DNA of 64,000 nt from Nitrospirota bacterium. Its GTDB lineage: Bacteria > Nitrospirota > Thermodesulfovibrionia > Thermodesulfovibrionales > UBA9159. This document shows, piece by piece, positions 11,232-40,044 of the stretch. Position numbers and translations under genes: made by a program. The notes below the pieces were generated by a model that was not told the origin of the DNA, ran no database searches, and saw only the letters and a list, made by a program, of their open reading frames with translations. Positions within the stretch are counted from its first letter, which is position 1, and every line of letters begins with the position of its first letter. The stretch lies in the NCBI GenBank assembly GCA_963699545.1, contig CAVOUE010000012.1, positions 97,140 to 161,139 on the forward strand. The letters run 5' to 3'.

Positions 11232-11268
11232 AAAAAAGGCCGAACATACCCAAGGTTCTTCCTTCGGC
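11232..11268 (-). terminator. Riboswitch expression-platform terminator
   Basis: GCCGAA...TTCGGC followed by CTTTTTT; its 5' arm overlaps the aptamer 3' strand. Confidence 0.75.
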
Positions 11269-11342
11269 AGCCCAGCCATCTTCCTTTAAGACCTGTTGCT
11301 TTCCGTCCCCTTCTCACGAAGGGTTTGGTTTTATCGGGAAAC
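11258..11342 (-). ncRNA. GEMM-I (cyclic-di-GMP-I class) riboswitch, A20 variant predicted to bind 3',3'-cGAMP
   Basis: CGATAAAACCAAACCCTTC-GTGA-GAAGGGGACGGAAAGC...GGTCT...GCTGCCGAAGG fits the GEMM-I architecture (GNRA-capped P2, GACGGAAAG junction, P3). Confidence 0.88.
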
Positions 11343-25739: not shown

Positions 25740-26026
25740 ATTTCTTCCAGGCAAAATGCAAAGATTTTTTTGAAAAGCAAAACCATCCCTCACAAACGCA
25801 TCCTTCAGCAGCTTGCTCTGCCGTTCGAACGCCTGTCTGGGGTTCTTTGGGTTCTTCATGAGGGCGATTTCCTGCGTGATGAGCCTCGCCATATTCAGGA
25901 TTTGGATGCACCACTGATACCTCCTTGCTCCATATTCTCTTTCACCTTCCCCGGCTGGCCGGCAAGGCAAATGTCCATAAGCGTCAACTATGATACAACG
26001 CATTTTGGTGTATAATACCCTTTACT

Positions 26027-28150
26027 ATGAGCTTCTGGAGCGCGATACAGAGAGATTATAAGGCCGTTTTCAGGAACGACCCTGCGGCGCGGAACGGAGT
26101 GGAGGTGGTCCTTGCCTATCCGGGCTTCCATGCCATCTTCCTCCACAGGATCAACCATGTCCTCTGGAACCTCGGGATACCGTTCGTCCCCCGGCTTTTC
26201 TCCCATATCGCGCGGTTCCTTACGGGTATCGAAATCCATCCTGCAGCGAAGATCGCGCCCGGTTTTTTCATTGACCACGGCATGGGTGTCGTGATAGGAG
26301 AAACCTCAGAGATCGGAGAGGACTGCCTCCTGTATCAGGGGGTTACCCTTGGAGGAACAGGGAAGGAAAAAGGGAAGCGTCACCCCACCCTCGGCAAGAA
26401 CGTCGTGGTCGGTACCGGCGCCAAGATCCTGGGCGCGATCACCATCGGGAACTCTGCCAAGATAGGGGCTAACGCCGTTGTTCTTGATTCCGTGCCCGAC
26501 TACGCCATTGTGGTGGGTGTTCCGGGAAAGGTCATCAAGAAGAAGGTTCTCCGGATGATGGACGAAGGTGCGGTCGAAAGCCTTTCCCGCGTGCACCTTC
26601 CGGACCCTGTGGAAGAAAAGTTCAGGGAAATGGAAAAATATATCGCCGGACTCGAAAAGAGGATGGAGACACTGGAAGGAAAGGGAGGGAGGATGCGAGT
26701 CTACAACACCCTGAAAGGGAACAAGGAAGAACTGATTCCCCTCAGTACGGGCAGGATCGGGATGTATGCCTGCGGGGTCACGGTGTATGATCTCTGCCAC
26801 ATCGGTCATGCCCGCAGCGCCATCGTCTTCGACGTGATGCGGAGATACCTTGCTTTCAAAGGCTTTGAGGTCAAGTATATAAGGAATTTCACCGACATTG
26901 ACGACAAGATTATCAACAGGGCCAAACAGGAAGGTATTTCCTGGGATGAGGTTGCGAGGAAATACACGGCGGAATATTACCTGGATATGGACCGGCTCGG
27001 CGTGGGAAGAGCGGATATGGAGCCAAAGGCCACGGAGCATATACCGGAGATTATAAACATCGTCAAAGGTCTTGTGGAGAAGGGATATGCGTATGCCGTC
27101 GATGGCGATGTCTACTTCGAGGTCAGGAAATTCTCAGATTACGGAAAGCTCTCGAAGAGGGATATAGAGGATATGCTGGCCGGTGCCCGGGTGGAAGTTG
27201 ATGAGAGGAAACAGAATCCCATGGACTTTGCCCTCTGGAAGGCATCAAAAGAAGGGGAGCCGTCGTGGAACAGCCCGTGGGGTCCGGGAAGGCCGGGATG
27301 GCATATCGAATGCACTGCCATGTCCATAAAGCATCTCGGTGAAAGCTTCGATATTCACGGAGGAGGGGCGGATCTGATCTTCCCTCACCATGAGAACGAG
27401 CTGGCCCAATCCGAAGCGTATACCGGTAAGCCATTTGTGAGATACTGGATTCACAATGGCTTCATCACCATCGATAAAGAGAAGATGTCAAAGTCCCTCG
27501 GGAATTTCTTTACCATCCGGGAGATCCTGGACACGTTCGACCCCGAAGTGGTGAGGTTCTTTCTCCTCTCGACACATTACCGGAGCCCTATCGAATTTTC
27601 GGACGAGTCCCTGAGGGAGGCGGAACTGTCCATCGACCGGTATTATTCCACGGTGGTGAGGATGGAAGATTTCCTGAAAGAAGCGCAGAACAGGGAGAAA
27701 CAGACCGGGGAAGAACGATCACTGGAGGAGACCCTTGGCGCGTTCATGAACAGATTTCAGGAAGCGATGGATGACGATTTCAATACCGCCCTTGCCCTTG
27801 GTCACCTCTTTGAGCTGATCCGGGAGGTGAACAGGTATCTGGATTCCAAACCTTCAGGCCAGAATGCGAAGGAGTTCATAGCAAAAGCAAAAGACCTGCT
27901 GCGGAAGGCAGGGGGCATTCTCAATATCTTCAACAAGCTGCCCGAAGAATGGAACGACGCCCTGATGCAGACCAAGAAGATCCCCTACACGAAGCCCGAG
28001 ATCCTTGACAAGATCAGACAGAGGCAGGAAGCAAGGCAGAAAAAGGACTGGTCAGCTGCGGATGCCGTAAGAAAAGAACTGGAGGCACAGGGGGTAATCC
28101 TTGAAGACAAAAGGGACGGCACCTCCTGGAAGGTGAAAATCGGCAAGTAG
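26027..28150 (+). CDS. cysE-cysS: In-frame fusion of serine O-acetyltransferase and cysteine--tRNA ligase
   Basis: TGIEIHP, DHGMGVVIGET and KRHPT in the N-terminal part; CGVTVY, HIGH, GWHIEC and KMSKS in the C-terminal part. Confidence 0.92.
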   Translation: MSFWSAIQRDYKAVFRNDPAARNGVEVVLAYPGFHAIFLHRINHVLWNLGIPFVPRLFSHIARFLTGIEIHPAAKIAPGFFIDHGMGVVIGETSEIGEDCLLYQGVTLGGTGKEKGKRHPTLGKNVVVGTGAKILGAITIGNSAKIGANAVVLDSVPDYAIVVGVPGKVIKKKVLRMMDEGAVESLSRVHLPDPVEEKFREMEKYIAGLEKRMETLEGKGGRMRVYNTLKGNKEELIPLSTGRIGMYACGVTVYDLCHIGHARSAIVFDVMRRYLAFKGFEVKYIRNFTDIDDKIINRAKQEGISWDEVARKYTAEYYLDMDRLGVGRADMEPKATEHIPEIINIVKGLVEKGYAYAVDGDVYFEVRKFSDYGKLSKRDIEDMLAGARVEVDERKQNPMDFALWKASKEGEPSWNSPWGPGRPGWHIECTAMSIKHLGESFDIHGGGADLIFPHHENELAQSEAYTGKPFVRYWIHNGFITIDKEKMSKSLGNFFTIREILDTFDPEVVRFFLLSTHYRSPIEFSDESLREAELSIDRYYSTVVRMEDFLKEAQNREKQTGEERSLEETLGAFMNRFQEAMDDDFNTALALGHLFELIREVNRYLDSKPSGQNAKEFIAKAKDLLRKAGGILNIFNKLPEEWNDALMQTKKIPYTKPEILDKIRQRQEARQKKDWSAADAVRKELEAQGVILEDKRDGTSWKVKIGK

Positions 28151-28224
28151 GGGGCTTCGATTCCCATCGGTTTGTTTTTGTTGAAATACCCTGAAATGCT
28201 CTCCGCATACGCAATAGCTGCAAT

Positions 28225-28431
28225 TCAAAATACCGTCGAAACAAACTGGTCCATCCTCGTCGCCGAACCCGTTCGTATCGACTTCCCCACTTCAACTGCC
28301 ATTATAATTTCCTGCTCATCAATCCCATTTTCGCGGGCCCTGCCCACGTGGTGTTCCACTCACCCCTGACAGTTTGAAGCAACAGATGCTCCGACAGCGA
28401 TCAATGACTTGATTTTTTCATCAAGACCCAT
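28225..28431 (-). CDS. AhpD/carboxymuconolactone decarboxylase-family selenoprotein (CxxU), 68 aa
   Basis: GGAGG SD; MGLDEKIKSLIAVGASVASNCQG-UGA(28360-62)-VEHHVGRARENGIDEQEI; SECIS-like hairpin 28332-28348. Confidence 0.88.
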
Positions 28432-28500
28432 AATGTATTCCTCCTTCCAGGCTTGGGGACATTAATGTGCGATCAACCATACCGATAAACTATCGGCACG

Positions 28501-28719
28501 TTACAGTGTTCATGAACCTCCGTATCCAATTGTCACCTTGTCTCCTTCCACGATGACCGGAACCCTTGCAGCGCCTTTCGTGTATTCAAGCATCTCCTTC
28601 AGTTTTGCCCTGTCCGACAAGACCTCGATATAGACTGCGGTATCGCCAAAGGCCGACCTGGCCGCTTGACTGAAGGGTCATCCCTTCTTGCCAAAGATTT
28701 TTATCACTGTTTCCGTCAT
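28501..28719 (-). CDS. UXX-star-type glutaredoxin-like selenoprotein with two Sec, 72 aa
   Basis: FGKKG-UGA(28678-80)-PFS...RVPVIVEGDKVTIGYGGS-UGA(28510-12)-TL-TAA; hairpins 28651-28663 and 28478-28500. Confidence 0.88.
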
Positions 28720-28770
28720 CCCATTACCTCCCTTTCAGTTTATAGCTATGGCGCAAGGCCCGATACTACG

Positions 28771-29307
28771 TTACTCTATAAGGAGAAGTGCGAAGTAGTT
28801 CCATTTGCCGTATGTCTCTTTTTTCGTGTCGACCTCAAAGCCGTTGGCCCGCGCTGTTTTGAAGACATCTATGCCGCAGGCTTCCATAAGGGGCCTGATC
28901 CTGAGTTTTTTCTGGTCACCAGTCTGAGACTCACCCTGAGTCTCCGCCTCACCAGAGGGTCACGTTGCCCCTTCGGGCCCTGAAGAGAGAGCAGTCATCG
29001 CGAATGCCTTGTAAAAGCCCATCTGGTATGCCTCGCCTTCAAGCCTCACGGCGGTCTCGGTGAGGGTCTTCCCCTTGGAGCCGTTCATGAGGATCGCTTT
29101 GCTGTATTCCTTCATCATCTTTTTTGTGCTGTCCGCATCGGGAGCACAGGGGGGATGATAGGCGTCCTTACCATGGAATGCACAGCCGTAAACGCACTTC
29201 CACCTCACCCACTCCTCTACGACAACAGCACTGGTATTTATGACCCTGGCTTTCTCGGCCCCAAGCTCAAGGGACCTTTTTAAGAGCTGGTCTGTTTTAT
29301 CTTCCAT
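28771..29307 (-). CDS. DUF2284-like metal-binding selenoprotein, 178 aa
   Basis: WVRWKCVYGC...PPCAP...GPEGAT-UGA(28960-62)...RPLMEACGIDVFKTARANG; the family motif lies after the UGA; hairpin 28926-28944. Confidence 0.85.
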
Positions 29308-29335
29308 TCCATCACCTCCTTCACGTGTGGTGGCT

Positions 29336-30271
29336 TCATTTATGTTTAAGCGTATACTCTCTGCCGTCCCGGTTACGACCTCGGCAGGATGTCCGTCCTC
29401 CTGAAAAATACGGACACCGTTCTTCCCTGCACCCGTGGGGATGCTTGACGCCATGATTGCAAATTATTGATTGGCTTAGGGGCAGCACGAGTCCGAGGCT
29501 TTCCCCAAGGTAATTCACCGCCGCATCAAGGGATGTCCTGACATACGCCTTACAGCAGCTCGGGCCTGTGAGATCGGTTATCGCCCTCGCAACCCTTGTC
29601 ACCGCCTCCATGGTGATCCTCTGCTCCTCATCTTTACCGCATTTCGAACCCGTGAGGACTGCAAAACAGGCCCCCATGGCCGGGGCGATGCCGCAGACGC
29701 CGCTCAGGCCGCAATAGCCGCCGTGGGCCTGCTTCCTTGTGCGTTTAAAGACCTCCTTGATCTCTTCATCCGTCATGCCCTTCACGCCTTCGTTCTTTAT
29801 CGCGGCCATAAGTGCCCCGCCGGCAATGTACGCATGCTGGCAGCCGAGCATCGGAAGTCCCGGGAAACTCATGGCAATTTCGGCTATCTCGAAGGGATTG
29901 CTTGATGACGTCGAAAATATAGTATCTTCTATGATCCTCATCGAATCCCTGTTGTGACAGAGGTCGCAGATATAGTGGCCGCTTAGGCAACTTATATGGC
30001 CGTGCTCAAGCTTGCCACAGTATATGCACTTCAGCTCCTCTGCCTTGTCGTGATACGTCAGGGGCGTGCCGCAGACCATACAGTGCTCGGTTGCTTTAGT
30101 CTGAACTTCTACGACAGGTTTATCCCCCTGGTTCCCGCTTTCGCAAAGCCCTTCTATGGTCCCGGTTAACGACTTTGAAGCGCTGTTTTGATGCCCACCA
30201 GCATCATCGCCCGGCTCTCAATCTCAGCTGCCATCTTCTCTCAATTCTTTCCTCTCTTTTTCCTCTGCCAT
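29336..30271 (-). CDS. DUF5714-like Cys-rich protein with an N-terminal UxU motif, 311 aa
   Basis: AAGGAGG SD; MAEEKERKELREDGS-UGA-D-UGA-EPG, in frame with CMVCG, CIYCG, GHYICDLCH, GGYCG and GPSCCK; hairpin 30189-30206. Confidence 0.82.
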
Positions 30272-30283
30272 TGTTTCCTCCTT

Positions 30284-30577
30284 TCATCGGAACAAGAGGG
30301 TGTATCCCACCAGCCCCAGGCTCAAGGCAGTCGTCACGTAGAGCATTCTCTTTCCCCACGGGTCGGCAGATCCCCTCTTCCGGAAAAATGTCCTGTGGTA
30401 CGCCATTCCCAAAAAAGCAAGGGTTACGAGCACGAAAATCCATCGGTAGCTCACCATCCAGACGCCTAGGGTCAGGCTTCCCAGGCCCAAACTGGCCAGG
30501 ATCAGGGGAAGCTGTCAGGCGAAAAAAGCTACCGCTGAAGAAATGACAGCACCGCTCTTAAAAAATGACGCCTTCAT
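30284..30577 (-). CDS. MerT-like membrane transporter selenoprotein, 97 aa
   Basis: MKASFFKSGAVISSAVAFFA-UGA(30515-17)-QLPLILASLGLG...YRWIF, three TM segments; the UGA sits at the MerT CC site; hairpin 30484-30497. Confidence 0.8.
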
Positions 30578-30618
30578 GAAATTCTCCCTTCACCACTTGA
30601 AACAATTACTCGAATCTC

Positions 30619-31122
30619 TTATGTGCGCTTTCGGGTTTCTTTTCTCGGTCCCCACGCCTGCATCTTTATCTTTCCCTCCCGAGCGAGTTTGCCAAGGATA
30701 AAGAGGACGCTCTCACGATTCAGCTTAAAGTATGAAGCTACCTCGTCAGGGTCCACTTTTTCTCTGTCGGTGAGAAATACGACTATCTCATTCTCGATCT
30801 CTCTCATCCAGTCATTAAAGAGTCCCCGCAGCTCCGGGGTCGAGTACGTGGCCAGCTCATAGGAATGGCTCACCGCCGATATGACCTCCTTGCTCATCTC
30901 CACCGGATTCACCCCTGAATCCGAACACTCCTTAATTCATTCATCCACCAGCGACGCCAATTGTCGCCCCTTTTTCCTGCCGGCAGCCACGCTCCGGAGC
31001 ATTTCTTCCTTATCAGCTTCGTTCAGGTCCTTTAAGAGCGTTGTGACAAGGCTGCTCAGGACCTCTCTCTTTTCGGTGGAACTCATACCGGTCATGACCT
31101 TTTCGATCGTGCCCTTTTCCAA
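30619..31122 (-). CDS. Unknown selenoprotein (UxxxC) with a wHTH-like C-terminus, about 167 aa
   Basis: ORFs 30937..31131 and 30619..30912 are in frame, separated only by UGA 30937-39; strong hairpin 30903-30924; TTG start after GGAGG. Confidence 0.78.
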
Positions 31123-31127
31123 TGAAA

Positions 31128-31562
31128 TCACCTCCTCTTTTCAGCATTACGATGAATGTTGTCCTTCGGTTTCCTCATTATAGGAGTCCGTTTGATCTGC
31201 CTCTCCACTTTCCACATTTTTTTGACGACAGGTTCGGGCTTTCCGTTTTTATTCGGTTTTTTATCATTTAATTGAGAAAGATCAGCGAGAATGTCCAGAA
31301 GCGAAGGGTCAGACAGACTGTAATAGATAAAAGGACCCTTCCTTTCCGTCCGCACGATGTCGGCCTCGCGCATGATCCTCAGGTGAAAAGAGACCAGGGT
31401 TTGAGAGAGGCCGGTTGTCCTCACAAGCTCCGTTACCGACCGGGATTCCTTACCGACGGACATAACCATGTCCAAACGGTTCCTATCCCCAAGAGCCTTG
31501 ATGAAGCGGGCAAGTGTATCCATGTCGTTGATATTCCAGCCGTTTACCATATCAAAATCCAT
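31128..31562 (-). CDS. ArsR/SmtB-family regulator heading the selenoprotein operon
   Basis: KALGDRNRL, SQTLVSFHL and RKGPFIYYSL. Confidence 0.9.
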   Translation of the reverse strand: MDFDMVNGWNINDMDTLARFIKALGDRNRLDMVMSVGKESRSVTELVRTTGLSQTLVSFHLRIMREADIVRTERKGPFIYYSLSDPSLLDILADLSQLNDKKPNKNGKPEPVVKKMWKVERQIKRTPIMRKPKDNIHRNAEKRR

Positions 31563-31565
31563 TCA

Positions 31566-31612
31566 TATGAGTAGATACTCATAGTGTATAAGAAGAAATT
31601 CATGATTGTCAA
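31566..31612 (-). promoter_or_regulatory. Promoter with an ArsR-type inverted-repeat operator
   Basis: TTGACA-18nt-TACACT, then the perfect palindrome TATGAGTA-TC-TACTCATA (31566-31583). Confidence 0.75.
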
Positions 31613-31833
31613 GCGGGAAAAATTATCTTCTCTACGGTCTTCGGGTATCCTCTCTCAGAGGAAATTGAACCTGTTTCGGTAATGCTCGCTCTCGTCGATG
31701 ATCCCTTTGTTGTAGTGCTCCTGCCAGTTTCACCGTTCGGTGTCAAGGGAGAGTAAGGAACAGCTTCTCCGACCCTCAAGGGAGATATTTACAGAAAGAA
31801 TTATCAATCCTGGAGCAATGATTTCTTATTACG

Positions 31834-33097
31834 TTAGAATTCATACCTCACTTGAAGATAAATATTGTCGTTCTTATCGAGCTGCCCGAACTGGCTCCCC
31901 TGGTTGCCGCCCCCGAAGATGTTTGCCCCAATGGCTGACCAGACGTGGTCTGAAAAGTTATATTTGATTTCAGGATTGAGCATATAGTCCCCAGCGGAAG
32001 GGCTGTAAAAAGCGAAGAAGGACAGCCTCAGTGTCTGATGCATCAGGAATTGAGTCAGTCGAACGGTGGTAAGTTGGTAAAGCTGGCTTTCCTGCGGAAA
32101 CCCTTGAGGAAGATTTTTTGTATAATTTGAATGGTTGTGCATGTACTCTCCGTAATATTGGACGCCTACAGTAAAATCTTCCCATATCTGCCTCTGGTAG
32201 CCGATGAGGAACCTTGTCTGGGAATTCGGGATCATGGGGTTTGTACCGCTTCTGTCTTCCCTTGAATCATAATATCCCGCTTCAAGACTCAGGACACCAT
32301 CCAGCGCTCGCCCCTGAAGGCTCGCGCCGTATTCCGACAGCGTCGGGATAAAAGAGTGTCAGTTTGGTCGGCATCGTTGCATTGTCGGGCATCATCGAAG
32401 GTTGCCTGAAGAATCCGCGATACGCATAGAACGATACGTCAAAGCCTGCTATGTCACGGTAGGCCCTGAGAGCAATCTCTGTATTTCCCAGGGTTACCGG
32501 CGGTTTCACCTTTTCTCTATCCGTGACACCTGGCATAGGGTCAAACATCCAGAACCTGTTCGGGGAAGGGAAAGTATTAGGTGTAAAAAAGGGGATTGCA
32601 ATCACCTCGAAAGACGCAAAGCCCGGATAAATACCAATCTTCGCTCCGTCTATTCCCTTCTTTAGATATTCCAGCGGCCTGCCTGAAAAGAAAGCTTCAT
32701 AGTCTTTTGGAAACACGTCGTTGATAAATATGAGGTCTCCCACGCCCCAGGTTATGACCTGTCTTCCGACCCGTCCGTCCCATTTCGAGGAAGTGAAATC
32801 AAGATATCCTTCCCTCAATTCAGATTTTGGTTTCTCATCGATGTGATCATAGAACCCGTCCGCCTTAATAAAAATACGGAAAGGGTCTTTGGATGCGTCA
32901 AGCTTTAGTTGAAGCCTTTCCTCCGCCAGTTTGAAATCTGCCCCGTCCGGATTGGAAGACGCCGCGTCCGCAGAATAGTTGCCCTGCAAAAAACCGTGCA
33001 GGGAAATATCCGATGCGGCAGCGTTCGATGAAGACAGTATGCAGGCGGCAAATAAAAAGAGTCCCGCCGGAAACGGGCTACATTTAAGATTGCGCAT
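31834..33097 (-). CDS. Outer-membrane beta-barrel protein (DUF1302-like), frameshift near 32335
   Basis: Signal peptide, LREGYLD, GRQVITWG, C-terminal YLQVRYEF. Confidence 0.75.
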
Positions 33098-33191
33098 CTG
33101 CCGTACGACCCTGGAGGCATGCTCACTCGATCCATTTTTTCGGAGGCTGTTTGAGATACCTTTCAGAAAAGAGATGGTCATCAATTCTAAT

Positions 33192-33359
33192 TTACACTTG
33201 ACCGCTTCCCTTACATCTGGAACAGAGATTCTTGCCATGTCCTTCACTTTCGAGTTTCGAACACCAAACACACTTTTGGCCAAACCTGTTCTTTCCTGTA
33301 CCGCTGCAATGCGGGCAACGTCCGGTACCGCCACAGTCAGGGCACTTTTTTTTCTCCAT
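33192..33359 (-). CDS. Small DnaJ-type Cys-rich zinc-finger protein (55 aa)
   Basis: GGAGGT SD; CPDCGGTG, CPHCSGTG, CVWC, CSRCKGSG; below the ORF-track cutoff. Confidence 0.75.
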   Translation of the reverse strand: MEKKKCPDCGGTGRCPHCSGTGKNRFGQKCVWCSKLESEGHGKNLCSRCKGSGQV

Positions 33360-33397
33360 GCTTATTACCTCCAGTTGATATTGCTGGCTAAGATTCC

Positions 33398-34198
33398 CTA
33401 CTCAATCCACTTCTTCGGCGGCTGCTTCAGAAATCTCTCAGAAAAGAGGCTGTCCTCGATCCCGATATTGTAGTCCGTCTTGAGATATGTCACCTGTGTC
33501 GAGTGACCGCTTTGGAGGTTCTTCATTGACCTCTTCGTGACTGTCGGGAACCCCTTTACATTCTTGATCTCATCGGCCGTGAACACCTTATAGAGCTCCC
33601 CCCTCTTGTCATAGTACTCCTCCTTGAGCGGGAGAAAGTCCGATTTATCTATCCATGATAGTTTGTAGCTGTATTCCATGTCAGCCGCTTTTGGAGTACT
33701 CTTTACCACATAGCAGTCCTTGCCGCCGTACTTTTCTTCCTTTACGATACTGTGGGTGTCGTCTTCGAGGTTCCTTCCTGATACGTCCTCATAGGTAAAG
33801 TCCGAGCCGACAAAGCTTGAATACTTGTCCTTTGCCGCGATCCTTCTTACCATGTTGATCGCAGGGACAAAGAGCCAGCGGTCAGCGTCTTTTCCTGGAT
33901 ACTTGTAGACCATGAATGTCATGTCCTTCACATCGGCAGGCTGAAAGAAGTACATGAAATATTTCTGCTCGCCGCCTGGCTCACCGAAGTTTTTCCTCAA
34001 CATCGTCATTTCGCGTACCCTTTCCTGACCGCCCTTGCTGATGAGCTTCATCATCACCCGCGCCTTGAAGTCCTTTCCCTGATAGAGAAAGGCGGCCTGT
34101 GATTTCTTCATGATCTCATCAGGAGTGACAGCAAATGAGCTGCTGCATAAGGCTACAGAGACGGCTATTGCTGCAGCAATTATCAATAACCTTTTCAT
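33398..34198 (-). CDS. Outer-membrane lipoprotein-sorting (LolA-like) protein
   Basis: AGGAG SD, signal peptide, PADVK, WLFVPA...VRRI and FVGSDFTYED. Confidence 0.85.
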   Translation of the reverse strand: MKRLLIIAAAIAVSVALCSSSFAVTPDEIMKKSQAAFLYQGKDFKARVMMKLISKGGQERVREMTMLRKNFGEPGGEQKYFMYFFQPADVKDMTFMVYKYPGKDADRWLFVPAINMVRRIAAKDKYSSFVGSDFTYEDVSGRNLEDDTHSIVKEEKYGGKDCYVVKSTPKAADMEYSYKLSWIDKSDFLPLKEEYYDKRGELYKVFTADEIKNVKGFPTVTKRSMKNLQSGHSTQVTYLKTDYNIGIEDSLFSERFLKQPPKKWIE

Positions 34199-36511
34199 AT
34201 TTATTTCTCCTTTAAACAGCCAGCCCTGCATGAGAGTTACAAGGGCGGGCAGGTAAATTATTGTCATAACTGCGCTCAGAAGCATCATGCTGACGATAAA
34301 AGCCCCAACTGTTATATATGGCGTAAGCGGCGCAAACATCATCACGGCGAAGGATGCGGCAAAGAGAATCGCATTGCGCATTATTCCTTTGCCCGGCCGC
34401 GCAGCAGTCCAGAGCAAGGCATCTGATAACGATTCACCTGCGGCCGGTTTCTTTCAGCCGCTGCCGCAACCTGCTCACAAAGTGGATCGCAAAGTCAACC
34501 GCCATGCCGAGGGAGAGAGTGGAAAGCACTGATATCGGCATATCGAAGTCCTTTCCGATGAAACCGACAACGCCATAAATAAGAAGAATCGTAAACAGCA
34601 GAGGAGTGTAACCGACAATCGCCCATTTACGGAGCGGAAGTCGAAGGCGAGTATCGCGAAAACGGCGATCAGCGCAAGGACAAAGCCCTTTACCATGTCC
34701 CACAAGACTTCATGGTTCCACACAAGGTTGAAATATGCGATGCCGGAAGGCTTCATTTCCATGGGCGTGGGATTGGTCTTCTTGTAGTCGTCCACCGCGT
34801 CTAATGACATCTTTCATCGCCTGCGCATCCCATGTCTTCAACTGCACCCAGATGTTGGCCCTCCTGAAAGGATAGTCGACAACATTGTCCAGGTCAGAGG
34901 GCTTTGCGGACATGGAGAACAGGAAGAGGTACTGGCCTATCATCTCCTTGTGTCTCCGGCACAACGTCGTATTTCGGGTCGTCGTCATGGAGCACGCGGT
35001 TTATCCTCTTTACGTAATCCACAACGGAGGTCGTCTTGCCTACGACCGGCAGCTTTTCAAGCCGCCTCTGAAGTCCTTCGATATACCGCATTGCTTCAGG
35101 TGTCTTAATGTAGTCGTCGTCCTTTGCAATCGCCACGACGTAACCGAGGGATGTCCCGCCCAGGGCCTTGTTCATCACTGAATCCGCAACACGGACATCG
35201 CTGCCTTTCTTGAACCATTCCACGAGATTGTTGTTCACGGTTATTCTTGTCAAACCGATGACGGCGATTACAAAAAGAATAAGGCCGACTATTACGGTAT
35301 TCTTCGGATGGTGCACCCCGAACCCGGCGAGTTTTTTCAGGAACTGAGACGTCTTGCCCATGCCGAAGTGTCTTCCGACCCGGCGATCTTTTCTATCTTC
35401 TCTTCCTTTCACGAAGGTGAACATTGCCGGGATAAAGCTGAAGCTCAGGATTCTCAGCGAGATCGTCCCGAAGGCCACAAGCCCTCCGAAGACCTTAACA
35501 GGGATGATGTTCATGAAAAGAAGCACGGCAAAGCCGGCCGCCGTTGCCAGTGCGGTGTTGCGCACCGGGCGGCTCACGGCATGCATCGTCTCGATGATCG
35601 CCTTTTTCTTGTCCTTTGTCTCCCGGTACCGGAAATAGAACTCATTGAAGATATGCATGCTGTCCGTTGCAATTGCCATAAGAAATACAGGCGCCATGGA
35701 ACTCATGATGTGAATGGGAAAGCCCAGACCCGATGAGCAGCCCCATGCTCCAGACGATGCTGATCATGGCGTCCATCATGAGCGTGATCGAGAGAAAGAG
35801 GTCCTTGAACATGAGATATCTGACAAACAGCATGATCATGCCCGCTATTGGAGCAAAGACAGCCATGAGCTTGAACATCTCCGCGCCGAACGTGTCCCGT
35901 GGCAACAGGATCGCCGGCTATGTAATACTTCTCGTCTCCCTTTTCTTTCTTGACGATCTCGCGTATCCTGTCCGCAATCTCCTTGCCGTTCGACCCTTTT
36001 TCAAGGGGCACGTAGATTGCTGTCGTCTTTCCGTCTTTTGAAATAATACGGTTGATGAAAAGGGGATTCTCGTACAAGCATCTTGCGGAGATATTCAATC
36101 CCTTTCTGATCTTCGGGGACATCTGTCATTAACGGGGCAACCCTCGAGCGTCCCATTATCGACAGTGACATTGTCGATGGTGGTAAAGCTTGACACATCC
36201 CGTGCGGCAACGCCTTTGATCTTCAGGACTTCATCAGTTATTCTTTGTATCTTCTCCAGGGTGTCAGTATTCAGAATGCCCTTTTCGTTGACGATCCCAA
36301 GGGCGATCATGTCCTCGTAAAGACTGAAGGTCTTTTCCACCTCGTCATTCCAGACCCTGACATCGGACGTTGCGGGCAGCATGTTCTTAGGGTTGGTGTC
36401 AGTCCTCATCTTCGGGAACTGGGTCATAAAGAGCAGGGTGAGGATTACGGACAGAAGAACGATTAATTTGGGATGCTCTACAGAAAACTCAACAAGGGAA
36501 AATGTTCGCAT
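34199..36511 (-). CDS. MMPL/RND-family transporter, several frameshifts
   Basis: Two TM clusters and large periplasmic loops; AIATDSMHI and LGMAVDFAIHF. Confidence 0.85.
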
Positions 36512-36685
36512 TTATACCTCCGTTAATGCACGCATAATGATTCTTCCCTATATGAGACGTACAAATTGTTTAAACGTAACCCTGGCTGTCTCAGCAGCGG
36601 CGTTTACTTTTCTCTCCCGGTATCTCAGGCCCTTCGATGCAAGAGGAAGTCCCGTAATTTCTGCCTGAGACATCAATAGCCTTTT

Positions 36686-37873
36686 TCATGGTAACCCGCT
36701 GAGGCCGTGTTTCATCTTCCAGAGAAAGTACCTTTCAAATACGATCTTCCCCCATCTAAACCAGATGCCTTCTTTAAACACCGATTTCTGCCTTGGCGGG
36801 AGCACCGGACTTGCCTTCATGTACGCAGCGGTATTGCCCATATCCATAAGACAAAGGACGTCAATGGGGATATCTTCAGGGGGCCTGCTTCCCGTACTAT
36901 CTGCAACAATTGCCGATGAAGCGGTTTTTGCCATCCTTACGGTCATATACCCTGTCTTAGGAACGCCCGTGGGAACGGGCGTCTGTTCAGGAGGGGCGAT
37001 CGCTACCGCAACCCCAACAGCAAAGATATTCTTATATTTTACATGCCGGTATTTCCCATCGACAGGAATGAACCCTCTTGGGTTTCCGAGGTGTGCAACC
37101 GCGGGAACCCCTTTCATGGCAGGGGCAAACATCCCAAGCTTGAAGGGGATCTTTGTGCCGTCCTTCAACCGCACCTCATCAGGCACTATCTCTTCGACAG
37201 CAGTGTTGACGATGATTTTGATATCCCGCCTTGCGAACTCATCCTCCATCATCCGTTTGGAATCCCTTAATCCACCGATACCGAAATGGCCTATGTATGG
37301 CTCCGAGGTTACAAAGACCATGGGCACCTTATGGCGGATTTTCCTTCTGCGGAGTTCCGTGTCTATTTCGAAGGCATACTCATAGGGCGGACCGAAACAG
37401 CTCACTCCCTGGACAGAGCCGGTAACAAGGGGACCGGGATTCTCAAGGAACGTATTCCATGCCTTATTCGCCCTCTCCGCCTGGTCAAGGGTGAAGATGC
37501 ACTCAGTGTTCCCCTTCTCCGGCCCGAGGCCAGGAACTTCTTCAAAGGCAAGATAAGGTCCGGTGGCTATAACGAGATAGTCATAAGGGATATCCCTTGT
37601 TTCCGTTAAGACCTTAGACGCTTCGGCATCCACCCCTTTCGCTTTTTCGTGGACAAACGTTATGCCTTTCCTTTCCAGGATCGGCTTTAACGGGAGGGTA
37701 ATATCTCCGGCCTTCCTGCTCCCCATGGCAACCCACGGCAGGGAAGGGACAAAAACAAATTTATCATCGTCGCAAACGACGGTCACCTCCGCTTTTTTCC
37801 CGAGGAGTCTTTTCAGTTCAAACGCTGCAGTGAGTCCCCCGAAAGAACCACCCAAGACAACAATCCTCGCCAT
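36686..37873 (-). CDS. sqr: Sulfide:quinone oxidoreductase-like flavoprotein
   Basis: GGSFGG Rossmann fold, ECIFT, SCFGPPYE, GVPKTGYM and LCLMDMG. Confidence 0.85.
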   Translation of the reverse strand: MARIVVLGGSFGGLTAAFELKRLLGKKAEVTVVCDDDKFVFVPSLPWVAMGSRKAGDITLPLKPILERKGITFVHEKAKGVDAEASKVLTETRDIPYDYLVIATGPYLAFEEVPGLGPEKGNTECIFTLDQAERANKAWNTFLENPGPLVTGSVQGVSCFGPPYEYAFEIDTELRRRKIRHKVPMVFVTSEPYIGHFGIGGLRDSKRMMEDEFARRDIKIIVNTAVEEIVPDEVRLKDGTKIPFKLGMFAPAMKGVPAVAHLGNPRGFIPVDGKYRHVKYKNIFAVGVAVAIAPPEQTPVPTGVPKTGYMTVRMAKTASSAIVADSTGSRPPEDIPIDVLCLMDMGNTAAYMKASPVLPPRQKSVFKEGIWFRWGKIVFERYFLWKMKHGLSGLP

Positions 37874-37896
37874 CGCTACCTCCTTTAAGAGCCCTG

Positions 37897-37973
37897 GGCT
37901 ATTAGCTGTCAGCCTTCAGCTGGAATTTCATTATTCTGTCTTGCTGAGCGCTGACGGCTGATACCTGAAAGCC
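37897..37973. repeat. Inverted heptamer-repeat hairpin (GCTGANN-type units)
   Basis: GCTATTA GCTGTCA GCCTTCA GC ... GCTGAGC GCTGACG GCTGATA CCTGAAA GCC. Confidence 0.6.
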
Positions 37974-37977
37974 ATTC

Positions 37978-38259
37978 TTAAAACATTCCGACCACTTTGT
38001 CCTCATCGGCCATCAGGTCAACAAGGCTTCCATAGTCCACCAATTTTATACCTTTCTCGATCTCATCGCCCTTCAATCCCCTAAGCCTCACGTCGTCATC
38101 CAGAACGTACGCAGTGCCGCAAAAACCTTCAAGCCTCTCCTTCTGCGCAAAAGAGATACCGTTCTGAAGAAGCACAATGTCGGCCGCTATATCCCTTGCC
38201 AATTTTATGCCCCTTTTCCCATCCGCCGTGTCAGGCGCGCTCTTCACTACTATAAGCAT
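37978..38259 (-). CDS. DsrH/TusB-family sulfur-relay protein
   Basis: IVLLQNG, VLDDDVRLRG and VDYGSLVDL. Confidence 0.82.
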   Translation of the reverse strand: MLIVVKSAPDTADGKRGIKLARDIAADIVLLQNGISFAQKERLEGFCGTAYVLDDDVRLRGLKGDEIEKGIKLVDYGSLVDLMADEDKVVGMF

Positions 38260-38270
38260 ATAAACCTCCC

Positions 38271-38624
38271 TCAAAAAATCATCGTTGTCCTGGCTTCCTG
38301 CATCAATTCCGCTATCTCTGCGGCGCCCGCCAGTTTCACCCCATCCACAATATCCGCAGACTCAAGGTGTTGTTCCCTCACTGATGCCTTGTCTGCATAC
38401 ACCCCCACACCCATGTCCATGCAGTCCTTCAAAGCGCCTTCAAGATTCGTGAAGCCCGTACCTGTGTCGTCCTGCCCTTTCTTGGCAAGGAGAACGCCGC
38501 TGTCCACCAGGATCAAATCAACGGCAAGTTCATCTGCCGCGCCGCCCATGGCATGCCTGACTGCCTCCGCTGCGTTTATGTCACCGTAGGGCGCCTTTCG
38601 CAAGATCATCGCAATTTTCCCCAT
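38271..38624 (-). CDS. DsrE/DsrF-family protein (DsrF/TusC-like, no active Cys)
   Basis: LRKAPYG, DSGVLLA and VYADKASV. Confidence 0.82.
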   Translation of the reverse strand: MGKIAMILRKAPYGDINAAEAVRHAMGGAADELAVDLILVDSGVLLAKKGQDDTGTGFTNLEGALKDCMDMGVGVYADKASVREQHLESADIVDGVKLAGAAEIAELMQEARTTMIF

Positions 38625-38635
38625 GTTCTTCTCCT

Positions 38636-38992
38636 CTACGCTCCGATATTCAGCCAGATATCCGTTTCTCCCATGGTTTTAAACAGACCCTTGAGAGAGC
38701 CCACCTCTGCACCATCCAGATAGTCATCCTTCGCCGCACGGCGAAAGTTCAGGCATCCGCCTCAAAGGTAGACCTTCAATCCCTTCTGTATGAGTCTGGA
38801 GAATTCCTCTTCTGCGTTTGTAATCCCCTTTGCCTTCTGCTTTTTGAGGAAGCAGTACACCCCGTCCGCAGACGCGATGAGATTCACTGTATGCCCTTTG
38901 TCCAATGCAGCTTCAGCGGTCTTTACCGCTGTCAGAGTGTTTTCATAGGAATAGGGTGACGTAGACAGCAATAAGGTAAATGTTTTGGCCAT
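38636..38992 (-). CDS. DsrE/TusD-like selenoprotein (UxxC), 118 aa
   Basis: STSPYS...ADGV...KVYL-UGA(38762-64)-GGCLNFR...GSLKGL; SECIS-like hairpin 38728-38747. Confidence 0.88.
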
Positions 38993-39374
38993 GTTCCCTC
39001 CTTTCTTCTTCGGGATGAAACGGTTGATACCCTAATGTTCTCCTTTCTCCCGGATAGATGCCTTTTTTTGTTACGGGACAGCAGGCCGGGGCCGGCAATG
39101 TTCCCTGATAATTTTTTCGGATTATCTCAAGGATATCAGGGATTATGGGATCAACGAGGAAATAGCATTTGAGTCGTCCGTCAACGTACGAATCAATAAG
39201 GCCACGTGTTCTAAGCAGTGACAGATGCTGGGATACGTTGGGCTGGCTTATCTCAAGGAACTCCTCAAGATCGCTCACGCATTTGACACCCTTGAGAAGT
39301 TCTTCAAGTATCTTTATCCTGACAGGGTGGGCGATCGTTCTCAAAAGCTCAATCTTCTCTCCCATAAAAGGCAC
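38943..39374 (-). CDS. ArsR/SmtB-family regulator with a C-terminal CC motif (true stop may be near 39031)
   Basis: IAHPVRIKIL, KCVSDL, SQPNVSQHL and PACCP. Confidence 0.88.
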   Translation of the reverse strand: MPFMGEKIELLRTIAHPVRIKILEELLKGVKCVSDLEEFLEISQPNVSQHLSLLRTRGLIDSYVDGRLKCYFLVDPIIPDILEIIRKNYQGTLPAPACCPVTKKGIYPGERRTLGYQPFHPEEERREHGQNIYLIAVYVTLFL

Positions 39375-39392
39375 TTCATTTCCTCCCTTAGA

Positions 39393-39437
39393 ATATGCTC
39401 GTATTCATATATAATAATCTTTGCATGTTTTTGTCAA
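39393..39437 (-). promoter_or_regulatory. Promoter with an imperfect ArsR-type palindrome
   Basis: TTGACA and TATTAT-like boxes, then ATATGAATACGAGCATAT. Confidence 0.55.
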
Positions 39438-39445
39438 GAAAAAAA

Positions 39446-39778
39446 TCAGTGTTTGGATTCTATCTCTGCCAGTTTTCCTTTCTCCTTCATCTGCTCCACA
39501 AGGACTTCCTTCATGAGGATACATGCCTCTATCACCTTCATGTTCGAGACGCTGTAATACATATTGATCCCTTTCCTCCGGGATTTGAGGATCCCCTTGT
39601 GCCTCATCACCGCCAGATGCTGGGACACATTTGCCTTCGGGACACCAAGGATACTCACCAGTTCGCTAACGGTCTTTTCCCCGTCCTTCAGGGCGTTCAG
39701 GATCTCAATCCTCTTGGGGCTCGCCAGGGTTTTGCAGACTTCGGACTGGAGTTCATAAAGTGTCTTATCCTTCCGCAT
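39446..39778 (-). CDS. ArsR/SmtB-family regulator
   Basis: CKTLASPKRIEIL, ANVSQHL and RKGINMYY. Confidence 0.9.
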   Translation of the reverse strand: MRKDKTLYELQSEVCKTLASPKRIEILNALKDGEKTVSELVSILGVPKANVSQHLAVMRHKGILKSRRKGINMYYSVSNMKVIEACILMKEVLVEQMKEKGKLAEIESKH

Positions 39779-40044
39779 GCGCTTATTCTATTTAATCGGT
39801 ATTCCAAAGGTCAAGCCTTTTCCCGCTATGACTCCCGAACACCGGATCCCGCGCTCGCATATCATAGAGGGAAAGAATCATGCGGAGCGTTTCACCTTTG
39901 CGGGAAGGGCACCTTCATAGCGAACGCCGAAAGAGGTTGTCCGCCGTCACAAGGAGCACCTGCGGAAAGTCTGGACGCTGTGCAGTGACGATCTCTTTCC
40001 GTCCCGTCTTTACATTTCTGCGTCCTTTGCTGTATCTTTTTAGC

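Follow-up and report, generated by a model that had tools for sequence, protein, structure and literature searches.

A composite block of three ArsR-type modules with six selenoprotein genes in a Nitrospirota genome

Does a dense run of ArsR regulators and selenoprotein genes on one strand form a single detoxification island, or is it assembled from separately controlled parts? The question is raised by an 11.5-kb block at positions 28225-39778 of a 64,000-nucleotide stretch of DNA (here called the window) from a sediment-type Nitrospirota bacterium of the order Thermodesulfovibrionales (assembly GCA_963699545.1, contig CAVOUE010000012.1, positions 97,140 to 161,139). A preliminary description had presented the block as one sulfur, selenium and metal detoxification island with three ArsR regulators, seven selenoproteins and possible cross-regulation. 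We find that the block is a composite of three modules, A, B and C, each with its own ArsR-type repressor. The reading that we favor, with moderate confidence, is that these are three separately promoted, ArsR-controlled modules lying head to tail, which probably cooperate on one sulfur-dependent chemistry.

Every open reading frame (ORF) with family support in the block lies on the minus strand. A cysE-cysS ORF that runs to 28150 and a PHP-like ORF that starts at 39880 flank the block on the plus strand, which bears out the co-directional arrangement proposed earlier. Module A consists of arsR1, followed by arsR2-dsrE(Sec)-dsrF-dsrH-sqr, where Sec stands for selenocysteine. Module B comprises the genes for an MMPL transporter, a LolA-like protein, a small Zn-ribbon protein and an outer-membrane barrel, and module C comprises arsR3 (TsoR-like) and the genes for a TsoA-like protein, a MerT-like protein, MbdU, a UXX-star glutaredoxin and an AhpD-like protein. 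The previously proposed gene identities held for the three ArsR/SmtB genes (all above the Pfam HTH_5 cut-off of 22 bits), for dsrE, dsrF and dsrH (by their Pfam domains) and for sqr, which matches a solved sulfide:quinone reductase over its full length (Table 1). Two of the counts changed. The DUF5714 and DUF2284 ORFs are one mbdU gene, so that the supposed six-gene operon has five genes once these halves are joined, and the selenoprotein genes number six instead of seven, with nine TGA codons in frame between them. For the MerT-like protein, the barrel and the Zn-ribbon, the matches behind the assignment lie under the curated cut-offs of Pfam or NCBIfam; the NCBIfam scan took in 14 proteins of the block.

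For the promoters we relied on conservation, as pattern scans returned promoter and terminator counts at chance level (10 versus 10.5 and 10 versus 13.1). Ahead of arsR1 homologues, TTGACCTTT and a downstream AATAGAATA are conserved. In the arsR2 promoters of relatives, TTGACA is followed by ATATGCAAATAT-N4-ATATTTGCATAT, a 12-4-12 palindrome; in this genome only the left half-site of the arsR2 operator has kept the conserved sequence, the right one being degenerate. The arsR3 promoters of homologues have TTGACA followed by ATATGAGTA-NN-TACTCATAT, arranged as 8-2-8 or longer, and the site at 31566-31583 in the window is a perfect 8-2-8 palindrome, TATGAGTA-TC-TACTCATA.

One possibility is that the block is nevertheless one regulon with cross-talk, in which the three ArsR proteins recognize related TATGA...CATA operators and jointly control a sulfur, selenium and metal detoxification island. 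All genes are co-directional, no intrinsic-terminator-like site was found in any intergenic gap of the block, and both operator families start with TATG and end with CATA. The palindromes differ, however, in length, spacing and inner sequence (ATATGAGTA/TACTCATAT as 8-2-8 versus ATATGCAAATAT/ATATTTGCATAT as 12-4-12), and they remain distinct even at locus L056, where both operator types lie within one 214-nt divergent intergenic region. Cross-regulation is therefore not supported. The loose pattern TATGA-N5-11-CATA is somewhat over-represented in the window (6 occurrences versus 1.8 expected), but six of 100 shuffled sequences also reach 6. As for the operators said to be shared at 31566 and 39393, the first is the perfect palindrome described above; the second (39394-39409) is a mere 5-8-5 repeat that overlaps the degenerate right half-site of the arsR2 operator and is not the conserved palindrome. 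We judge a common regulon to be improbable. The conserved sites point to three distinct promoter/operator types, and we read the block as three separately promoted modules rather than one regulon.

If the modules are controlled separately, have they also arrived separately? For a comparison with related genomes we searched 40 relatives at the DNA level and mapped the proteins of 20 loci. The order arsR-arsR-dsrEFH-sqr-(arsR, DrsE_2-like)-MMPL-LolA-barrel, which corresponds to modules A and B, was seen in 12 of the 20 loci. In each of two same-genus genomes, one contig (G001:C8 and G002:C1, respectively) matches window positions 25787-28153 and then continues straight at 31834 onward. Because these genomes join the end of cysS to the barrel gene, the 3.7 kb at 28154-31833, which hold arsR3 and the five selenoprotein genes of module C, are an insertion here. 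By this comparison modules A and B are ancestral at the site and C was inserted between the barrel gene and cysS. The closest copy of C (G012:C55) is in another genus and in a different context, and its proteins are 79-85% identical.

We then asked how often C lies near A or B elsewhere. A search anchored on DUF5714 gave 79 loci, mostly labelled as Nitrospirota and in some cases as Thermodesulfovibrionales; others include Desulfobulbaceae, Syntrophales and Aquicultor. Of the 59 loci that could show a TsoA-like gene just upstream of DUF5714, 25 have one there, and DUF2284 follows directly in 25 of 69, while UXX-star and AhpD-like genes are each found in 3 of the 79. Genes of A or B occur within 10 kb of C genes in 10 of the 79 loci, in at least five arrangements (5 of 22 when the count is restricted to loci flanked by 8 kb or more on each side). 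DUF5714 lies behind the barrel gene in L067 and L083, and directly behind sqr or dsrH in L070 and L079. The C genes stand in front of arsR2-dsrEFH-sqr in L053, and A/B and C are some kilobases apart in L049 and L052. MMPL-LolA-barrel directly follows mbdU in L056 and L058, the full order in L056 being sqr-dsrHFE-arsR2 <> arsR3-tsoA-merT-mbdU-MMPL-LolA-barrel.

We also sampled 121 genomes evenly across the order. A DUF5714 match was present in 21 of them, an sqr orthologue in 52 and both in 14. The two lie within 10 kb of each other in 4 of these 14 genomes, from four families, compared to a chance expectation of about 1% per genome (a random 20-kb neighborhood in a 2.5-Mb genome). The link between A/B and C is therefore far above chance but not obligate. 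The earlier proposal of one island is partly supported; the finding that was to refute it, sub-clusters that are never linked in other genomes, did not come about.

A second explanation would be that the juxtaposition is functionally meaningless: C could be an accessory cassette that landed in a permissive gap between convergent genes, and the adjacencies elsewhere could reflect shared hot spots of mobility. This would fit the absence of C from the site in two same-genus genomes and the finding of its nearest copy in another genus and another context. It would also fit the 10 of 14 genomes in which sqr and DUF5714 are on different contigs, several of them long. Set against this, C and A/B are neighbors again in four families of the order and in at least five gene orders (among them those of L070, L079, L067, L083, L056 and L058), at a level far above the expected 1%, and inspection of the junctions by eye revealed no integrase, transposase or flanking repeat. 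We regard a meaningless juxtaposition as rather unlikely. Because adjacency of C with A/B recurs within the order in several arrangements, the modules probably cooperate on one sulfur-dependent chemistry. Several observations count against such cooperation. Besides the 10 of 14 genomes just mentioned, no A or B gene was seen in 69 of the 79 anchored loci (many of these contigs are short), and a search for MbdU in G001 and G002 (86% and 93% complete) found none, which means that A and B are kept there without C. Moreover, the genomes are related and the linkage counts are not independent of each other.

The coding capacity of the block depends on whether its in-frame UGA codons are read as Sec. 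Six selenoprotein genes contain nine such codons: one each in the genes for DsrE and the TsoA-like, MerT-like and AhpD-like proteins, three in mbdU and two in the UXX-star gene. As judged by folding energy, hairpins resembling the selenocysteine insertion sequence (SECIS) are present behind all nine UGAs at +9 to +48, with energies of -10.4 to -13.9 kcal/mol. The background in the block is -6.5 +/- 3.4 kcal/mol (n = 3981 positions), and none of 20000 random sets of nine positions reached the observed mean. The hairpin of dsrE has -12.1 kcal/mol and those of the UXX-star gene have -13.4 and -12.5 kcal/mol, the latter lying behind the stop codon.

The codons are also conserved. TGA is kept in all homologues of DsrE (20/20), of the TsoA-like protein (33/33) and of the AhpD-like protein (3/3). 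The C-terminal TGA of mbdU is found in 23 of 24 homologues, and the remaining one has TGC (Cys). The two UGAs of the UXX-star gene are kept in 2/2 and 1/1 cases, and both are present in the homologues of L042, L052 and L059. By direct translation, all 13 distinct homologues of the MerT-like protein read C-U-Q-L-P, compared to A-U-Q-L-P here. A column alignment of 15 sequences had suggested nine TGA and six Cys at this position; we rejected it as a one-column slip onto the adjoining Cys. With respect to the decoding machinery, the genome contains selA (607 bits), tRNA-Sec and a selB that scores 302 bits, above its cut-off, in two frames (G000:C3:318143-319991; model positions 1-314 and 312-577). 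For selD no match above the cut-off of 125 was found in this metagenome-assembled genome, which is 87% complete; the best match scored 66.9. The nine UGAs carry signals for Sec decoding.

Two further TGA codons were considered and rejected as Sec codons. The TGA after HGLSGLP of SQR was discarded as all 52 order-level sqr matches are free of internal stops. The final TGA of the AhpD-like gene was discarded on the grounds that a further stop directly follows it in the G012 copy.

Table 1. Features of the three modules, from high to low positions (positions of the window; scores in bits).
Feature	Positions	Strand	Basis and remarks
arsR1 promoter-like site, TTGACC-18-TAGAAT	39785..39814	-	pattern scan
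arsR1	39446..39778	-	ArsR/SmtB repressor; HTH_5 56.4; conserved Cys pair C15, C95
arsR2 promoter TTGACA (39432-39437) and operator ACATGCAAAGAT-TATT-ATATATGAATAC (39401-39428)	39401..39437	-	phylogenetic footprint
arsR2	38943..39365	-	ArsR/SmtB repressor; HTH_5 51.3
dsrE-like selenoprotein	38636..38992	-	Pfam DsrE 62.1; UGGC motif; TGA at 38762-38764
dsrF/tusC-like	38271..38624	-	Pfam DsrE 58.6; TIGR03010 39.8, under cut-off
dsrH/tusB-like	37978..38274	-	Pfam DsrH 43.4
sqr	36686..37873	-	sulfide:quinone reductase; FAD oxidoreductase by Pfam; 349 to 3T2Y, 339 to 3HYV, full length
MMPL/RND-type transporter	34199..36511	-	at least 6 frames in this assembly
LolA-like periplasmic protein	33398..34198	-	signal peptide; Pfam LolA_like 216.6-217.5; 90% identical to G001 protein
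Zn-ribbon ORF, CxxC-rich, 55 aa	33192..33359	-	weak Pfam matches under cut-off
Outer-membrane barrel-type protein (DUF1302-like)	31834..33097	-	one frameshift near 32349
arsR3 promoter TTGACA (31607-31612) and operator (31566-31583)	31566..31612	-	scan and conservation
arsR3, TsoR-like	31128..31562	-	ArsR/SmtB; NF045707 89.1, below cut-off 115; HTH_5 42.1
TsoA-like selenoprotein	30619..31131	-	NF045695 99.1, below cut-off 170; TGA at 30937-30939
MerT-like two-helix membrane selenoprotein	30284..30577	-	A-U-Q-L-P; TGA at 30515-30517
mbdU (DUF5714 + DUF2284)	28771..30271	-	TGA at 30224-30226, 30218-30220 and 28960-28962; split by extra base 29397
UXX-star glutaredoxin-like double selenoprotein	28501..28719	-	NF041114 91.5, above cut-off 72; G-U-P-F-S and G-G-S-U-T-L-stop
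AhpD/CMD-like selenoprotein	28225..28431	-	C-Q-G-U; TGA at 28360-28362; stop TGA at 28225-28227

In module A, both regulators carry Cys residues. The Cys pair of ArsR1 is kept in every homologue listed, and its nearest solved proteins are Rv0081, PagR and SqrR. ArsR2 has the motifs KCVSD and KCYF and a C-terminal PAPACCPV (C28, C66 and the C94-C95 pair), all invariant in the homologues listed; its tail beyond about 39038 is probably out of frame. The Sec of DsrE aligns with the Cys of LCKTC in YchN (1JX7), which was the only solved relative that a search returned for it (E = 0.0015). The DsrE and DsrH domains of the three DsrEFH-like proteins exceed their Pfam cut-offs, and all three proteins score below the equivalog models for TusD, TusC and TusB (TIGR03012, 22.3 < 89; TIGR03010, 39.8 < 94; TIGR03011, 41 < 49). 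Residues 1-392 of SQR align to 1-407 of 3T2Y, with the Cys of S-C-F-G-P and of C-x-x-D-M-G matched. The third Cys of 3T2Y (chain position 128 by our own count) is unaligned, and SQR has a Cys two residues earlier.

Between sqr and the MMPL gene, where the window holds just 167 nt, loci of relatives (L022:13250-14004 of G001, L027, L029, L032 and L033) carry two more genes: a fourth arsR, whose product is ArsR1-like and shares its Cys pair, and a gene of the DrsE_2 family for 140 aa. Intergenic parts of the block also vary between strains, since metagenome contigs differ from the window at two such places. In the spacer between dsrH and sqr (37883-37982), 98 nt are missing from contigs of runs X1 and X3. 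At 28180-28184, in the gap that separates the cysS end from the AhpD-like gene, a contig of run X1 has 426 different letters.

In module B, the MMPL assignment was made with an intact 767-aa homologue from the same-genus G001, which scores 103 bits to Pfam MMPL. The Zn-ribbon ORF is 94.5% conserved in G001 and occurs in none of the 79 DUF5714-anchored loci. The two frames of the barrel gene were joined by tblastn, and an intact 417-aa homologue from G019 scores 23.5 bits to DUF1302 (cut-off 23.2). A start of the barrel gene at 33334 was rejected, as the signal peptide begins at 33097.

In module C, ArsR3 contains no Cys at all, and there are zero conserved Cys columns among 22 sequences. Its best NCBIfam match is NF045707 (TsoR), despite the sub-cut-off score. 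The TsoA-like protein has the motif E-U-I-K-E-C, which has the U-x-x-x-C spacing of LULAXC with different letters. Its C-terminal part is winged-helix-like. An AlphaFold2 model of the protein has a mean predicted local distance difference test score (pLDDT) of 61; it is confident for residues 105-160 only and falls below 50 in the Sec region. A Foldseek search with this model gave nothing at E <= 0.001; what it returned were weak winged-helix rows of about 50 columns.

The MerT-like protein scores 33.5 bits against merT_RC607 (NF033560; cut-off 130) and 17.8 bits against Pfam MerT (PF02411; cut-off 32.9). Its membrane helices were judged by eye, and a search for solved relatives gave none at E <= 10. 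The two halves of MbdU match NF045648 at positions 42-270 (DUF5714, 391.6 bits) and 292-468 (DUF2284, 333.7 bits). The cut-off of this model, 600 bits, applies to a single polypeptide, and the halves are joined here only if the base at 29397 is an error. The Pfam scores are 160.8 bits for DUF5714 and 95.5 bits for DUF2284, and the G012 orthologue is one open frame of 514 residues with both Pfam domains. The true start of mbdU, at 30271, lies ahead of the first Met of the standard-code ORF, and the tail that it adds contains S-U-D-U with two UGAs. Upstream sequence was long enough at 71 loci to read the N-terminal motif; it is C-U in 60 of these, and U-x-U occurs in this genome and in G012 only. 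The C-terminal Sec, in the DUF2284 domain, lies in G-A-T-U-P-S.

The UXX-star protein scores 31.8 bits to Pfam Glutaredoxin. Its second Sec stands three codons ahead of the stop, and the homologues end in U-T-V, U-A-L or U-A-V. The AhpD-like protein scores 48.5 bits to Pfam CMD and 32.4 bits to TIGR00778 (cut-off 27.8).

In other genomes the TsoR-like and TsoA-like genes are separated by a gene for an exported thioredoxin-like selenoprotein, about 155 aa long, with H/S-W-U-x-x-C-K (L044:8316-8792, L049:8695-9159, L050:8408-8890 and L073:7040-7504). It is often accompanied by two small proteins, one rich in Met and the other a membrane protein with W-W-N-G-P-G-W-G. The window has none of these three genes, and a fragment is kept in G012. 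At L029:14616-15714 (G031), a short DUF5714 selenoprotein with a C-U tail and without DUF2284 follows the barrel gene. The genes next after it, assigned by eye, encode an exported thioredoxin-like protein, a CcdA/DsbD-like membrane protein, a sensor kinase and a sigma-54-type response regulator.

Are these genes intact? The MMPL gene, the barrel gene, mbdU and the arsR2 tail are interrupted by frameshifts. Compared to G001, 11 indel events mark the MMPL gene: one base is missing, eight extra bases stand singly, and two longer insertions measure 2 and 4 nt. The extra T in the T5 run at 29397 that divides mbdU is absent from the contigs of all four metagenome runs that we examined. Likewise, the extra bases at 34800, 34952, 35405 and 35728/9 in the MMPL gene are absent from other metagenome contigs, that at 32349 in the barrel gene from an X1 contig, and that at 39038 in arsR2 from X1 and X3 contigs. 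The contigs of the four runs cover parts of the stretch only, and uncovered sites carry no evidence.

It could be speculated that the island is decaying, that is, that the frameshifts are real and that modules B and C have become pseudogenes in this strain. The events are concentrated in the MMPL gene, compared to none in sqr (1.2 kb) and one insertion plus one deletion in cysE-cysS (2.4 kb) relative to G001. The source reads were not found either: no listed sequencing run held more than 15% of the sampled words. On the other hand, the MMPL events are 10 insertions against one missing base. There are no in-frame stops by substitution, and the nucleotide identity of the gene to G001 (about 84-85%) equals that of its flanks. 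The extra base is absent from relatives at every covered site, and selB, an essential gene, is broken in a like manner. We consider decay quite unlikely. Because selB is split, because most of the MMPL events are single-base insertions and because the gene shows no extra divergence, the frameshifts in the MMPL gene, the barrel gene, mbdU and the arsR2 tail are very probably consensus errors of this assembly. A point to be set against this conclusion is that the source sample did not yield the contigs without these bases, which belong to related strains that are 90-99% alike; some of the genes may be real pseudogenes in this strain.

What, then, might the three modules do together? In module A, SQR would convert sulfide to sulfane sulfur, and a DsrEFH/TusBCD-like carrier, with selenocysteine in place of its active-site Cys, would accept it. 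Expression would be under the control of two Cys-bearing ArsR proteins. Module B, which is presumed to be normally co-transcribed behind sqr, would most likely form a whole-envelope export route for a hydrophobic or insoluble product. Module C is predicted to act as a ligand-exchange relay for a thiophilic substrate, for example a chalcogen or a soft metal(loid). The MerT-like protein would hold this substrate at the Sec of its first membrane helix and hand it to MbdU, initially to the flexible tail of CU type (UDU here) and then to the Cys-rich domains. The two small redox selenoproteins, UXX-star and AhpD-like, would reset the relay. We propose a relay because of the vicinal C-U in the first helix of the MerT-like family, the C-U tail on the Cys-rich MbdU and the presence of the two small redox selenoproteins. 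The proposal is weakened by the scores of the TsoA-like, TsoR-like and MerT-like proteins, all under their family cut-offs, and by the departure of this genome from its relatives at both motifs (A-U instead of C-U in the MerT-like protein, and U-D-U instead of C-U in MbdU).

Another possibility is that the block confers resistance to mercury, arsenic or thioarsenic compounds. The MerT-like importer and the Sec/Cys relay would then handle Hg(II) or As(III), ArsR2 would sense As(III) via its CC pair plus a further Cys, sulfane sulfur from SQR and DsrEFH would trap the metal(loid), and module B would export the product. The similarity to MerT and the CU pair in the first helix of the homologues fit this idea, although the MerT match is far under its cut-off. 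ArsR2, with an invariant vicinal Cys pair and two more invariant Cys, fits it as well. The DUF2284 domain scores 307.7 bits to a model of ArsM/DUF2284 fusion selenoproteins and the AhpD-like protein weakly matches a model of ArsM/AhpD fusions, but the 14 proteins scanned against NCBIfam gave no match to merA, merB, merP, arsB/acr3, arsC or arsM. In the available part of a preprint on the SAO system (bioRxiv 10.1101/2022.07.06.499078), CC and CU motifs are argued to mark contact with heavy metals; persulfide, polysulfide or selenium chemistry would account for such motifs equally well. We regard metal(loid) resistance in this specific form as unlikely. For the relay that we favor, the candidate substrates are a soft metal(loid), selenium or polysulfide, any of which may apply. 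DUF2284 and AhpD-like domains fused to arsenite methyltransferase are listed among catalogued selenoproteins in the available part of a review (PMC13188914), and this offers a lead towards arsenic.

It is tempting to assemble these elements into a three-part 'selenol relay' of the Thermodesulfovibrionales. SQR and the Sec-containing DsrEFH would feed sulfane sulfur to the MerT-like protein and MbdU, which would handle a chalcogen or a soft metal(loid), and an insoluble sulfide-type product would leave via the MMPL transporter, the LolA-like protein and the barrel. Within this scheme, the Cys-free TsoR-like repressor would not itself sense a ligand. Its release would fall to the neighboring TsoA-like protein, which has Sec and Cys and a winged-helix-like end, and the pair would amount to a two-protein ArsR switch. 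We hold this full scheme to be doubtful.

Elsewhere in the window, the plus-strand ORF at 26027-28150 encodes 707 aa, with a serine O-acetyltransferase-like N-terminal part (hexapeptide repeats) joined to a cysteinyl-tRNA synthetase, as assigned by eye. Its counterparts in two same-genus genomes are 85-88% alike, and the alignments contain one or two gaps of a single base. On the minus strand at 11262-11338 there is a c-di-GMP-I-GGC riboswitch aptamer (66.9 bits against a gathering score of 59).

Every family in the block has already been catalogued. The MbdU, Tso and UXX-star families (NF045648, NF045695, NF045707 and NF041114) are credited to Haft & Tolstoy 2025 (mSystems) in the part of the review PMC13188914 that was available. 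In the literature that we searched, 'DUF5714' was not found, and TsoA, MbdU and UXX-star in this sense were found only in that review. What may be new is the recurrent three-module neighborhood, the U-D-U tail of MbdU, the distinct operators and a possible explanation for genomes described as having dsrFH but no dsrE (see below). The neighborhood of SQR/DsrEFH, MMPL/LolA/barrel and MbdU provides a testable context for families of unassigned function, and the distinct operators are ready probes for inducers.

Like known MbdU/Tso neighborhoods, module C has an MbdU-type double selenoprotein, a UXX-star protein above its cut-off, a TsoA-like protein with U-x-x-x-C and a TsoR-like ArsR gene in front, and several otherwise unrelated selenoprotein genes are clustered. 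It differs in the sub-cut-off scores of the TsoA-like (99 < 170) and TsoR-like (89 < 115) proteins, in the lack of a TsoB or TsoC match among the 14 block proteins scanned (NCBIfam) and in the U-D-U rather than C-U tail of MbdU. In addition, the operon is here joined to dsrE(Sec)FH-sqr and to the MMPL/LolA/barrel set.

In the mer relay MerP-MerT-MerA, a small membrane protein carries a vicinal Cys pair in its first helix. Module C shares with the mer operon a pair in the first helix (C-U in 13/13 homologues, A-U here), a putative cytosolic acceptor with a flexible vicinal-pair tail and a repressor with an operator over the promoter. In contrast, no MerA, MerP or MerB was found among the block proteins scanned, the regulator is of the ArsR and not the MerR type, and the MerT match is below its cut-off.

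The regulators of module A resemble the persulfide sensors SqrR of Rhodobacter capsulatus and BigR, which are also Cys-pair ArsR repressors directly upstream of an sqr operon, and PDB entries 6O8K and 3PQJ are among the ArsR structure matches. Unlike these, the proteins here score only 48 and 46 bits against the BigR model (cut-off 155). In ArsR1 the first Cys precedes the position aligned with the SqrR region by about 12 residues, ArsR2 has a C-terminal ACCP motif, and two sensors stand in tandem.

The SAO system (Haft & Gwadz, bioRxiv 10.1101/2022.07.06.499078), as far as the available part of the preprint describes it, is likewise a multi-selenoprotein locus of anaerobes with repeated CU and CC motifs, DsrE-like and thioredoxin-like members and transporters, and is read there as handling traffic of a metal or its adducts. 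Compared to that description, the block has no SaoL, SaoB or SaoP families and a different type of transporter; SaoD is never a selenoprotein whereas the DsrE protein here always is.

Finally, module A shares with DsrEFH/TusBCD systems three small genes of the DsrE, DsrF and DsrH types in a row, with the Sec of U-x-x-C at the conserved Cys position; a DsrE-like selenoprotein family (PF02635, UxxC) is listed in the available part of PMC13188914. It differs from them in that all three proteins fall below the TusD, TusC and TusB equivalog cut-offs, and in that the genes accompany sqr and arsR genes instead of dsrAB or tRNA thiolation genes; the host is a sulfate-reducer-like Nitrospirota. A survey of aquifer Nitrospirota states, in the part available to us, that most Thermodesulfovibrionia "possess dsrFH, but no dsrE" (PMC11033732). 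In the block dsrE lies directly before dsrFH and, as in all 20 relatives, is interrupted by an in-frame TGA, at which standard gene calling would end it at 76 aa. The 'missing' dsrE of these bacteria may therefore be an artefact of annotation. All six selenoprotein genes of the block are truncated or split under the standard code, and with nine Sec codons in 11.5 kb it is a dense case of how gene callers misread the genomes of anaerobes.

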